NCBI GenBank assembly: GCA_963765675.1
Contig: CAVXXK010000001.1
Coordinates: 416,001-480,000 of the forward strand
Direction of reading: 5' to 3'
Length of the DNA: 64,000 nucleotides
DNA from: an uncultured delta proteobacterium
GTDB taxonomy: Bacteria > Desulfobacterota > Binatia > Binatales > Binataceae
The translations under genes and the position numbers were made by a program. Below, one piece after another: positions 58,579 through 61,372 of the stretch. The notes beneath the pieces were generated by a model. The model worked only from the letters and a program-made list of their open reading frames with translations, made no database searches and was not told where the DNA came from. Numbering within the stretch: the stretch's first letter is position 1; each line of letters starts with the position of its first letter.

Positions 58579-58904
58579 GGTGGCACCGGCTTTAGCCGGT
58601 GATTCTTCCGAGGGAGACGGGCGCGCCGCAGGCGCGGTTTCCAATGAGTTCGGTCCGCGCGAAAATCGAAGAGCCATAGCTGGTTGCACTAATCGCTTCG
58701 CGGAGATCCTTCGCCTGCGGCTCAGGATGACTGCAACGAGTTGACTGAAATTGCGATACTCATCGCCCCACATACATTCGTGGCAGGCGTGACGAGTATC
58801 GAGGCATTCTGATTGATCGAAACTGCGTGAAAGACGGGCGGCTCGCGAGCCGCCCCTACGAAGACTGATTCGCACGGATTCAATTCGTAGGGGCGCCTCG
58901 CGAT
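58579..58904. repeat. Cluster of REP-like palindromes
   Basis: ggtggcaccggctttagccggtg (58579-58601); GTCATCCTGAG..GCGAAGGATCTC type on the minus strand (58703-58731); inverted GTAG REP pair (58833-58862 and from 58884). Confidence 0.75.
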
Positions 58905-58920
58905 GGGAAGTATGCGGCAC

Positions 58921-58949
58921 TTGACTACCGGATGATTCTGCGCTATTCT
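58921..58949 (+). promoter_or_regulatory. Transposase promoter overlapping the left TIR (probably leaderless mRNA)
   Basis: TTGACT-17 bp-TATTCT, with ATG 7 nt after the -10 box. Confidence 0.65.
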
Positions 58950-58956
58950 CCCTTGC

Positions 58957-59892
58957 ATGAAGCAAACAGAATTATGGGAACAGAAGGAACCGAAATTTGT
59001 CCGCCAGATGACGGTTCACCAGTTCGAGGAAATGTTCCCGAACGAAACCGCCTGTTGCGAATTTCTGCTCCACCGGCGCTGGCCCGCTGGCGTTCGCTGC
59101 GCGCGCTGCAACAACGATCATGTGTACGCCAGCAAGGCGCGTCCGTGGCACTGGCAGTGCAAGAAATGCGGAAAGAACAATCGCGCGCCCTACCGCTTTT
59201 CGCTCAAGACCGGAACGATTTTCGAGGAAACCAAGCATCCGTTGCTGACGTGGTATCGCGTGCTGCATCTGATGGTTACATCCAAGAAAGGAATCAGCGC
59301 CCTACAAATCCATCGGATGCTCGGCTTCGGGTCTTATCGAACCGCCTGGTACATGTGCATGCGGCTACGCGCGGGCATGGCCGATCCTGATTTTCGGCAT
59401 CTCATGGGCATCGTGGAGATCGATGAGACGTTCATCGGCGGGAAAGAAAAAAACAAGCATCTCGGCAAGCGTAACCCCAAGAATCTAGGCGGCAAGGGAA
59501 AGGCCGTTGTGATCGGTGCGATCTCGCGCAAAGGGAATTTGGTTTGCCAAATGATCGAAACAGCGGACCGCGACACTATGATGCGGTTCGTTCAGAAAAC
59601 CGTAGCGCGTGGCGTCGATCTGGTAGTAACGGACGAACACAAGGGCTACGACACGATAGTTGATAGCGGGCGTCCGCACGAGGTTATCCGGCACAGCGAT
59701 AACGTGTACGTTCGCGGCATCGTGCATACCAATTCAATCGAGGGATTTTGGGCGCTGCTCAAACGCGGAATTATCGGCACCTACCACAACGTCAGCCGCA
59801 AGTATCTCCCGCTGTACCTGAACGAGTTTCAATTCAGGTACAACAACCGGAGGCAGGCGGACATCTTCGGCAAGGCGATAGCAGGGTGCTGA
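58957..59892 (+). CDS. IS1595 family (ISXO2-like) DDE transposase
   Basis: Zn ribbon CARC..CKKC, TGTIFE, KKGISA, VEIDETFIGG, TDEH, HTNSIEGFW, YLNEFQFRYN. Confidence 0.95.
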   Translation: MKQTELWEQKEPKFVRQMTVHQFEEMFPNETACCEFLLHRRWPAGVRCARCNNDHVYASKARPWHWQCKKCGKNNRAPYRFSLKTGTIFEETKHPLLTWYRVLHLMVTSKKGISALQIHRMLGFGSYRTAWYMCMRLRAGMADPDFRHLMGIVEIDETFIGGKEKNKHLGKRNPKNLGGKGKAVVIGAISRKGNLVCQMIETADRDTMMRFVQKTVARGVDLVVTDEHKGYDTIVDSGRPHEVIRHSDNVYVRGIVHTNSIEGFWALLKRGIIGTYHNVSRKYLPLYLNEFQFRYNNRRQADIFGKAIAGC

Positions 59893-60099
59893 GACGTGGG
59901 AACTGGCGACCGTCTCAGCTATCCCGCGAGACGACGCCAGCGGAAGTGAAGCAGTTGGAATTTTCATTTGTCTCTCTGAGTCCACACAATCACGCGAATA
60001 ACCAGAACGACTAAAAGAGCAATATACATGTAGCGGTTTACCTTCTTGATGATACTGTCTGCTCGCTCGTAATCATCTGCCGTCCAACTCGAAGCAAGA

Positions 60100-60948
60100 A
60101 TGAAACCTGAGCTAGAAACGAGCCTCAAATTTTGGCGGATGTGGAGAGACATCGGAACATACACACTAATAGTAGGCGTCCTCGCCGAAAGCCTGCTTGA
60201 TTTGTTTTGGAAGGAAAAGCAGCCAGCCATTACGTTGGACGTTCGCACGAAGGCCGAAAAATTTTGCGCTTGGTGGAACCCACGAAACATAGCGATATTG
60301 GTCGTGATATTTGTCGTTGCCATAGGCATCGGCATGGAGATGGTCTTCGGCGATTGGGCTGACGACATCGCCGACCAAATGCGCGTTGATTCAACCGCGG
60401 AACTGACGGCGTTCGTAAGACTTGAAAGCGGAATCCGGGAAATTACTCGCGACGATCCGACATATAAATTGAAGCCCTTTGCCGGGACGACAATTGTCGT
60501 TCGTTTTATCGCATCACCCACCGTGTTCGGCAGTTGGACGATCGATGAGTGGTGGGAGGCGCAAAGCTTCGCCGGAAGCTTTGAAGAACTGGCGGCGCCT
60601 TGGTTGGGATGGAGATGCCGGATTCTATGGAAAACCCCGGTTTTGGCAGGAGTAGGGACAAACGATGTCACGATATATTCAGCCGCCGTCATAGGTGGCC
60701 ACAGCAAATTCAAGCGTCCTCCCGCCGGTACGCCAGAGCGCAAAGGATGGGATGCTGCCCACGCCCTCCTTTCGTTTCTGAACAATGACCTGAATCTTTG
60801 GACTGCCCGGTACGTGCCCTTGGAAAGATTTGACCAATGTTCGGGACCGGGAATAGGCAGGGATGCCGTGTGCGTGGAAGTCGGCGTTAACCATCCCACC
60901 CAAAACGTGGCCGCCTTTTTAGAACACAAAAACGAAGAGAACCGATGA
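60100..60948 (+). CDS. Passenger hypothetical protein with two N-terminal TM helices
   Basis: 282 aa ORF within the TIRs, lower GC, hydrophobic segments near aa 18-36 and 63-83. Confidence 0.6.
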   Translation: MKPELETSLKFWRMWRDIGTYTLIVGVLAESLLDLFWKEKQPAITLDVRTKAEKFCAWWNPRNIAILVVIFVVAIGIGMEMVFGDWADDIADQMRVDSTAELTAFVRLESGIREITRDDPTYKLKPFAGTTIVVRFIASPTVFGSWTIDEWWEAQSFAGSFEELAAPWLGWRCRILWKTPVLAGVGTNDVTIYSAAVIGGHSKFKRPPAGTPERKGWDAAHALLSFLNNDLNLWTARYVPLERFDQCSGPGIGRDAVCVEVGVNHPTQNVAAFLEHKNEENR

Positions 60949-61173
60949 AGGCGAAATACGCTCAGAAAATTCTGTTCTTCTACTGCTACAAGTGTCGGAG
61001 CTACGAACCGAAAACCAGTCCGCATTACCGGGCGCAGAAACAGCGCTTGTCCCGCCGTAAGGCAAAGCAAAAGGCAGAACAGAACGGTGACACTTCCGCG
61101 CCCATTGCGCCATAATCGCCGTTCGTCACCGTCGAAATCTGAAACAGAGTTAGAATCCGGCCTGTCAGGAGAA

Positions 61174-61202
61174 AGTGTAGCCGTTTCGTCAATGGTAGTC
61201 CA
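61174..61202 (-). promoter_or_regulatory. Inward-facing promoter overlapping the right TIR
   Basis: TGGACT-17 bp-TACACT on the minus strand, in the same register as the left-TIR promoter. Confidence 0.5.
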
Positions 61203-61261
61203 GAGGGGCATACTTCCCCTCGCGATGCGCCCGTCGTCGCGTGACGACGATTGCCTGAACA

Positions 61262-61338
61262 CCCTCTCCCCACGGGAGAGGGCGACGCGGCGCGATGCTT
61301 GCGTTTTTTTCGCAAGCATCGTGACGCGTGGGTGAGGG
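61262..61338. repeat. CCCTCTCCC/GGGAGAGGG-type REP with internal hairpin
   Basis: ccctctccc-cac-gggagaggg, cgatgcttgcg-T7-cgcaagcatcg, gggtgaggg. Confidence 0.7.
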
Positions 61339-61372
61339 TGCTGCTCTGCGATTTATGCTCCCATAAATTCGT

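Follow-up and report, generated by a model that had tools for sequence, protein, structure and literature searches.

Nucleotides 58905 to 61218 of the window, by which we mean the whole 64,000-nucleotide stretch analyzed here (positions 416,001 to 480,000 of contig CAVXXK010000001.1, from an uncultured delta proteobacterium of the Binataceae), are occupied by an insertion sequence (IS) of the IS1595 family that sits in the exact center of a GTAG repetitive extragenic palindrome (REP). Comparison with related elements suggests that this position reflects a real target preference, in which the lineage probably inserts into sites composed of a GC-rich arm, an 8-bp core and a complementary GC-rich arm, and we prefer an interpretation in which this arrangement is read as symmetric duplex DNA.

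An IS1595-family element at the center of a GTAG REP

The insertion is framed by two halves of a REP and by a target-site duplication (TSD), and an intact REP lies nearby. The components of the locus are as follows.

58832-58862, minus strand: intact partner GTAG REP of the core-CTCGCGAG subtype, inverted relative to the interrupted REP
58884-58896, plus strand: left half of the interrupted GTAG REP, ttcgtaggggcgc
58897-58904, no strand: left copy of the TSD, which is the REP core, CTCGCGAT (ctcgcgat), read from the sequence
58905-61218: IS1595-family element, 2314 bp, with GG-tipped inverted ends and a perfect 8-bp TSD
61219-61226, no strand: right copy of the TSD, CTCGCGAT (ctcgcgat), read from the sequence
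61227-61235, plus strand: right half of the interrupted GTAG REP, gcgcccgtc

The initial annotation of this DNA proposed that removal of the element would restore a REP, and related genomes bear this out. Ten other genomes of the genus were searched with the flanks, and two loci, G009:C3 (87% and 91% identity in the flanks) and G001:C381, proved to be the orthologous intergenic region; in alignment, both orthologues have both REPs whole and no IS, the halves that are separated in the window being continuous, and the partner REP is conserved in each. The inverted partner, placed about 20 bp upstream by the initial annotation, is indeed intact and lies 21 bp upstream of the interrupted REP (gap 58863-58883), with ttcgtaggggcggctcgcgagccgcccgtct as its reverse complement. 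The exact position claimed for the insertion likewise stands, while its description as the REP 'loop' does not, because the central 8 bp are palindromic in the consensus (GTCGCGAC) and 'center' is the more exact term. The core of the struck REP is CTCGCGAT in both TSD copies as opposed to GTCGCGAC in both orthologues, and the simplest reading is that the struck REP had altered at its two outer core positions before the insertion; among the 8-bp sites of the lineage, G at the first core position (5/68) and C at the last (4/68) are rare.

The strict REP pattern has 40 intact copies in the 4.52-Mb genome from which the window comes. They form two subtypes, one with arms GGGCGC and core GTCGCGAC or GTCGGGAC, the other with arms GGGCGG and core CTCGCGAG or CTCGGGAG, and are often arranged in inverted pairs, several of which, including that of the window locus, are 20-40 bp apart. 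Because there are only 40 intact copies in this genome, the chance of a random insertion striking a REP center is ∼1e-5. The same genome has four matches above cut-off to Y1_Tnp, the profile of Y1 (RAYT-type) transposases, and a REP pair lies ∼1 kb downstream of one of them (C1:912829-913074). Contigs from low-depth sequencing runs contain pieces identical to the cargo of the element in three runs; no empty-site allele can be claimed from these contigs, where joints across the IS have sides of 22-35 nt or fall in flanking repeats.

We note two further repeats around the locus. A ∼60-70 bp repeat at 58667-58739, which shares its intergenic region with the REP pair, has dozens of near-identical copies in each genome of the genus (a query holding it gave 66 matches in the window's own genome and 84 in G009). 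A ∼90-bp repeat at 61255-61350, with inverted ends (caccctc...gagggtg) and an inner hairpin, resembles a miniature inverted-repeat transposable element; a query containing it gave 45 matches in the window's own genome, and the orthologous spacers in G009 and G001 do not have it.

The closest relatives occupy the centers of GTAG REPs

A transposase match at E ≤ 1e-40 is present in 118 of 165 Candidatus Binataceae genomes, seven of the 165 entering only this tally. For the census of insertion sites, loci were gathered from the initial homologue loci, the 60 best-ranked further matches and 79 metagenome loci, yielding 190 loci with a transposase match. Two ends and a TSD with no more than one mismatch could be delimited at 87 of them, of which 79 are distinct; the counts exclude 63 loci with no right end in the available DNA, 27 with no left end, and 13 with ends but no TSD. 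A strict end finder that called for exact GG tips and an 8-bp TSD missed 9-bp TSDs or tip mismatches in L059, L068, L070 and L084 and returned spurious pairs at L014, L023, L043, L068, L083, L088, L100 and L103, and it was replaced by a tolerant finder. The TSD is 8 bp in 68 of the 79 distinct complete relatives.

All six elements with at least 74% transposase identity, the window's own included, are inserted in GTAG REP centers in the same register, four of them complete and two represented by the left end only. Besides the element in the window these are L032 (77% identity, 3440 bp), at ggtagggggcg / TTCGGGAA / cgccccgtt; L033 (74%), at gagggccg / TTCACGAA and TTCTCGAA / cggcccctacgg; L134 (79%), at ggtaggggtcg / TTCGCGAA / cgacccctacc; and the left ends L141 (75%), at cgtaggggcgg / TTCGTGAA, and L180 (95% over the 146 residues on its contig), at gacgggcgg / CTCGCGAG. 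We considered whether L180 might be an insertion in the partner REP of the window locus, and alignment shows it to be a different locus. The REP arms struck by the six differ (GGGGCGC, GGGGGCG, GGGGCCG, GGGGTCG and GGGGCGG), and the loci are unrelated. In a quick tree with SH-aLRT (Shimodaira-Hasegawa-like approximate likelihood ratio test) supports, the window element groups with L032 and L033 in a single clade (support 93).

Seven of the 79 distinct complete relatives are in GTAG REP centers, and the TSD is always the central 8 bp; the additional insertions of this kind, L031, L087 and L095, come from two other clades. The rebuilt empty sites of L032, L033 and L095 have the exact sequence of uninterrupted REPs that occur 34-148 times in those genomes, and the pattern GTAGGGGNNNYTCNNGARNNNCCC matches 148 times in G036, 34 in G014, 47 in G116, 52 in G009 and 10 in G119, with zero control matches throughout. 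The check that the initial annotation had proposed, namely to collect homologues, delimit their ends and TSDs, rebuild the empty sites and look for enrichment, has come out in favor of REP targeting for these close relatives. The pattern that it named as refuting, insertion of other copies outside REPs at background frequency, is not what they show, with all of the elements of at least 74% identity in REP centers and the rebuilt sites corresponding to abundant REPs. The orientation of the IS relative to the GTAG end is unbiased (four left, four right, one two-sided).

Hairpin repeats and other target classes in the wider lineage

Insertion between complementary arms extends beyond the GTAG REPs. 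At least five of the six bases directly abutting the TSD are complementary at 20 of the 79 sites, and all six are complementary at 8 of the 79. The corresponding backgrounds, the same for 311,210 control positions within these loci as for the window's genome as a whole, are 0.79% and 0.06%. The 20 hairpin-framed sites comprise seven GTAG REPs and 13 other hairpin repeats, with the TSD exactly filling the spacer. Ten of the 13 (11 with L066, in which the right arm is degenerate) belong to the hairpin family CTCTCCCG-N8-CGGGCGAG, which has 7-40 uninterrupted copies per strand in each of five genomes, with controls giving 0-3. Its loops are mostly of 8 nt, TGAAATAA and TAAAGTAA for example, and the same sequences are found duplicated around the IS. 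This family, unrelated to the GTAG REP, has been struck at least ten times, the TSD being the loop in each case. Two sites extend this to nine nucleotides: in L044, from a Burkholderiales metagenome-assembled genome (MAG) and with 54% identity, the site is ccctccccc-AAGTGCGTT-gggggaggg and the 9-bp TSD is the loop, and in L070 a 9-bp TSD fills a 9-nt loop. A perfect stem of at least 5 bp lies near 47 sites, and is centered exactly on the TSD in 24 of these.

The wider lineage is not REP-specific, for other hairpin repeats and several classes of non-hairpin sequence have also been struck. Seven sites lie in a CCTAACCCC/CCTTCCCG repeat (CCTAACCCC...CCCCTTCCCG-AG-CGGGAAGGGG), always 2-3.5 nt off the center of the palindrome and with short C-rich/G-rich runs abutting the TSD (3-4 of 6 bases complementary). 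Five have a TTTGCAWA core, five lie beside a GTTTCACGTGAAAC palindrome, and five of the 79 abut the end of a resident IS1595-type element.

Several of these classes have features of their own. In L034, L062, L096 and L145 (left ends L142, L147, L027 and L007) the TTTGCAWA TSD is located one base after a ctctcc-N5-ggagag hairpin, which makes this a second, non-central target class, used by the sister clade of the window's element. L036, L056/L057, L060, L061 and L155 (left ends L047 and L156) are inserted at a common position, with ttctcctgaa on one side and the palindrome gtttcacgtgaaac on the other; they represent different IS1595 clades, genomes and TSDs, and the spot could be either a conserved regulatory hot spot or an old shared insertion. 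In L042, L072, L158, L174 and L198 (also L026) a newer element immediately adjoins the tip of a resident IS1595-type end, L198 being between two abutted ends, an arrangement that recalls the end-targeting of other IS families. A ∼22-nt motif, tcgcataagaNaNattatgtMa, is found next to many insertions of a single clade, in genomes that are unrelated (flanks of L017, L028, L042, L026, L174, L157 and L181). The element L100 is flanked by perfect 20-bp inverted sequences (actccaccctaaccctcccc ... ggggagggttagggtggagt) with differing 8-mers at its ends, an arrangement that suggests recombination between two copies or a larger loop. A recurrent TTTGCATA target was considered as a sigma-54 promoter and dropped by eye because the spacing is a misfit.

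Proposed symmetric duplex recognition and its alternatives

The explanation that we favor is that integration would follow the usual DDE pathway, the two strand transfers being staggered by 8 bp, and would fall exactly on the REP center. The preferred target would be a GC-rich arm, an 8-bp core (approximately YTCGNGAR in the window's clade) and a complementary GC-rich arm, both arms and the A/T-rich outer core presumably being read by a two-fold symmetric transpososome on ordinary duplex DNA, without need of an extruded hairpin. The REPs of these bacteria would fit such a design almost perfectly and, the TSD being the 8 bp between the arms, would act as hot spots; because REPs are extragenic, insertions in them would be harmless and hence persistent. 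The initial annotation's description of REPs as safe harbors is a candidate adaptive reading. That the preference itself is real is argued by the base-exact register, which selection alone cannot give. A duplex reading is favored because the symmetric composition of the hairpin sites recurs in the 50 8-bp sites that are not hairpins (positions -4 to -1 C/G-rich, +1 to +4 G/C-rich, and an A/T-rich outer core in which G is nearly absent from t1-t3, with 1/50 at t3, and C from t6-t8, with 1/50 at t7), and because the insertions in CCCCTTCCCG-AG-CGGGAAGGGG palindromes ignore the structural center. That the IS is found equally often in either orientation to the GTAG end also fits a symmetric duplex reading.

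Several considerations weigh against this explanation. The census is one of insertions that have survived selection and not a random sample of transposition events, and many sites come from few repeat families and few IS clades, so that the binomial contrast overstates their independence. No named class accommodates 37 of the 79 sites, and identical IS copies are present in non-hairpin DNA too (L111/L112 and L071/L072). The core consensus is a poor description of the loops in the CTCTCCCG family, where arms or structure may matter more. Finally, SSS-YTCGNGAR-SSS occurs 110 times in the window's own genome, and the 16 occurrences within REPs constitute 16 of the 45 in sequence called non-coding by a crude mask that covers 69% of the genome, such that non-coding counts are upper bounds and the REP share of the truly non-coding occurrences is probably higher.

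The last of these counts bears on a reading in which there is no true targeting, insertion being near-random or guided by a weak preference for the 8-bp core, with purifying selection clearing genic insertions. In its favor, REPs and hairpin repeats lie outside genes and are neutral, insertions are visible only if they have survived, and by the crude count above REPs may hold a third or more of the non-coding sites with the clade's core motif. Selection cannot fix a register, however, and the TSD fills the spacer exactly at a quarter of the sites, where random non-coding insertion predicts ∼0.8% hairpin-framed sites as against 25%; the break is at the same REP position in 7/7 complete GTAG-REP events and at both left-end-only junctions; and TCGCGA occurs 7144 times in the window's own genome, and cores containing it (GTCGCGAC or CTCGCGAG) are found in 24 of the 40 intact REPs. 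We regard this reading as improbable for the lineage at large, and a plain core motif combined with selection retains a residual plausibility for the window's clade, in view of the 16 of 110 motif occurrences within REPs. The notion that the REP halves are hairpin-built ends of the IS, or that recombination between two REPs took place instead of insertion, draws on the inverted orientation in which the halves flank the element, like terminal repeats. It is refuted by the orthologous loci that hold a whole REP without an IS, and both the direct 8-bp repeats between the REP arms and the GG-tipped inverted repeats and the presence of the same ends in quite different sequences in relatives speak against it, making it the least credible of the alternatives.

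Recognition of structure is a more serious competitor, in which an extruded hairpin or cruciform, or a single-stranded hairpin at a replication fork, would be the target, the ends being joined at the stem-loop junctions of any stem with a spacer of ∼8 nt. The stems flanking the TSD vary in sequence and yet remain complementary (GCGC/GCGC, GGCG/CGCC, GCCG/CGGC, GTCG/CGAC, CCCG/CGGG and GGTG/CACC), the variable loops of the CTCTCCCG family are struck regardless, the TSD lengthens to 9 bp with the 9-nt loops of L044 and L070, and 24 of the 47 nearby stems are centered exactly on the TSD. Complementarity, on the other hand, belongs to the repeats themselves and is not an independent sign that pairing is read; non-hairpin sites have the same symmetric composition; insertions in the CCCCTTCCCG-AG-CGGGAAGGGG palindromes are consistently off the structural center; the IS faces either way with respect to the asymmetric GTAG end, without bias; and in a cruciform the joining points would be expected at the tips of opposing hairpins, an arrangement ill suited to concerted integration. 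We therefore consider structure-specific targeting unlikely. A slightly less doubtful proposal, which we offer tentatively, is that the transposase might read architecture in place of sequence, joining its ends at the arm-spacer borders of any complementary GC-rich arms 8 (or 9) nt apart, perhaps in the form of an extruded hairpin or of a mimic of an abutted right end and left end of the IS itself, possibly with the 56-aa protein described below as a cofactor. If true, architectural recognition would be of wider interest for targeted integration, as the transposase would be a structure-guided integrase with a target that could be rewritten by changing the hairpin.

The element, its passenger and a small accessory gene

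The remaining features of the element in the window, for which our preferred interpretation of symmetric duplex recognition has been set out above, include its terminal inverted repeats (TIRs) and three open reading frames (ORFs).

58905-58928, plus strand: left TIR, GGGAAGTATGCGGCACTTGACTAC, with a 20/24 match to the right end
58957-59892, plus strand: transposase of the IS1595 family, 311 aa, with a zinc ribbon at the N terminus and a DDE domain
60100-60948, plus strand: passenger ORF, 282 aa, with hydrophobic N-terminal segments recognized by eye
60945-61115, plus strand: small conserved ORF, 56 aa, with an invariant C-x2-C ... P-H and a basic tail, zinc-knuckle-like
61195-61218, minus strand: right TIR, pairing with the left end

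The transposase matches the Pfam profiles DDE_Tnp_IS1595 (PF12762; 7.5e-40, over profile positions 2-153 of 153) and Zn_ribbon_IS1595 (PF12760; 7.3e-08, 32.7 bits with a cut-off of 25.4), and the NCBIfam model NF033547, 'IS1595 family transposase' (6.1e-59, 199.5 bits with a cut-off of 75). These two IS1595 domains were all that the Pfam scan returned, with none of the IS3- or IS110-type domains (rve/OrfAB, or DEDD with Transposase_20). Among 61 relatives the zinc-ribbon cysteines C33, C48, C51 and C68 are conserved in 97-100%, and D156, D226 and E290 in at least 98%. Both TIRs begin with GGGAAGTATGC and agree at 20 of 24 positions, and L032 and L134 have ends near-identical to the left TIR. 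Hallmarks of the IS1595 family, in the available portion of the source, are the DDE_Tnp_IS1595 domain, an N-terminal zinc ribbon that is absent only from the IS1016 group, an 8-bp TSD and TIRs starting with GG (PMC8101967). The element is an intact cargo-carrying IS of this family, agreeing with it in every feature tested, and the family membership, 8-bp TSD and internal cargo given by the initial annotation are all confirmed, by the three profile matches, by ctcgcgat read directly on both sides, and by the 282-aa ORF between the ends. It is present in a single copy in its 4.52-Mb, 16-contig genome. The plasmid-borne IS1595 transposases found all have less than 40% identity to that of the window, the best of them being annotated only as 'IS1595 family transposase'.

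Members of the IS1595 family that carry passenger genes are known as transporter ISs (Siguier, Gagnevin & Chandler 2009), and the 282-aa ORF is placed as expected of one, such elements having genes unrelated to transposition between the transposase and the inverted repeat. This passenger has no family match in Pfam, NCBIfam or PADLOC and no homologue in the other 60 elements at 1e-6. At the thresholds used, a collection of 5.8 billion sequences yielded a single homologue besides the window's own protein, with 51% identity and 95% coverage. Cargo varies among the relatives, and element length ranges from 1562 to 3656 bp among the sites listed.

The 56-aa ORF has a different distribution. Of 61 related elements, 34 encode a homologue, which either adjoins the transposase gene or lies at the opposite end, separated from it by variable cargo; the invariant columns of these homologues are C-x2-C, Y, K and P-H, together with a basic tail. 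The family numbers 654 database proteins, and the 120 listed are all unnamed or hypothetical with none (0/120) having a Pfam domain; the window's ORF itself has no Pfam, NCBIfam or PADLOC family and no solved structural relative (best E 0.73). Because homologues recur in this way and are all unnamed and without a Pfam domain among those listed, the predicted protein is, on its distribution, a lineage-specific accessory gene product of the IS lineage and not cargo. A role for it in target selection found no support, as the REP or hairpin occupants L031, L087, L095, L085, L089 and L090 are without it. We also note that a second family of small basic proteins (MPKAKPISLHPLTFHEALK...) is encoded ∼100 bp after the transposase stop in L012, L013, L031, L102, L108 and L109, which belong to another clade; it has the same position as the CxxC...PH protein and no sequence kinship to it.

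Discussion

Base-exact integration between the arms of REPs and other hairpins, in an IS1595 lineage of Binataceae-type soil bacteria, offers, for a DDE family that has received little study, a target rule open to testing, and it would naturally explain how an IS with cargo can spread and leave genes undamaged. In MAGs, a REP or hairpin that is split and accompanied by an 8-bp repeat is also a practical marker, with which elements can be delimited and empty sites rebuilt.

The Merlin transposons of eukaryotes have their bacterial relatives in the IS1595 family. With this family the window's lineage shares the DDE domain, the zinc ribbon, a single transposase ORF, the 8-bp TSD, inverted repeats tipped with GG and the presence of additional genes between the ends. 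Among elements of other families with symmetric targets, IS231A (IS4 family) prefers GGG-N5-CCC, and IS30 prefers palindromic hot spots and its own ends. These have in common with the lineage described here a DDE transposase and a symmetric target of short inverted GC-rich blocks around a spacer, and in the case of IS30 also insertion beside resident IS ends, seen here at 5/79 sites; they differ in family, spacer length and TSD. Among REP-targeting elements, IS1397 and ISKpn1 have short TSDs of 3-4 bp.

The lineage also departs from the IS1595 family as described in the available part of one account, with a single transposase gene, in the small CxxC...PH basic protein of 34 of its 61 elements (PMC8101967). 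REP targeting as such is documented, in the part of the literature survey available, for members of the IS3, IS110, IS4, IS256 and IS5 families (PMC1525189). The REP occupants given there by Tobes & Pareja 2006 include IS621, ISPpu9, ISPpu10, ISPa11 and ISRm19 (IS110) and ISRm22 (IS4), and the only IS1595-family members that it surveys, IS1016 and IS1016C2, have a low REP association (2/17 and 1/3) (PMC1525189). A high REP association is shared between the IS110 and IS4 occupants and the window's clade, being 4/4 to 10/10 within a genome for the former, in the same portion of that survey (PMC1525189), and 6/6 across genomes for the latter; as far as the sources at hand describe them, IS110 elements differ in being without inverted repeats and in using site-specific RNA-guided recombination. 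We found neither a report of REP or hairpin targeting nor a described target rule for the IS1595 family in the literature searched, subscription papers and ISfinder/TnPedia being outside that search. The comparison points to a preference for REP centers that is apparently undescribed for this family, REP occupancy itself being already known elsewhere.

The nearest parallel is with IS1397 and ISKpn1 (IS3 family), which insert into the palindromic units of enterobacterial REPs, or bacterial interspersed mosaic elements (BIMEs), according to the available text of the survey (PMC1525189). Insofar as they are described there, they share with the window's lineage a fixed mid-REP position, independent events in different REP copies and harmless extragenic insertions, whereas theirs is a two-ORF IS3 transposase and the window's lineage has an 8-bp TSD that is the whole spacer and is found in non-REP hairpins too.

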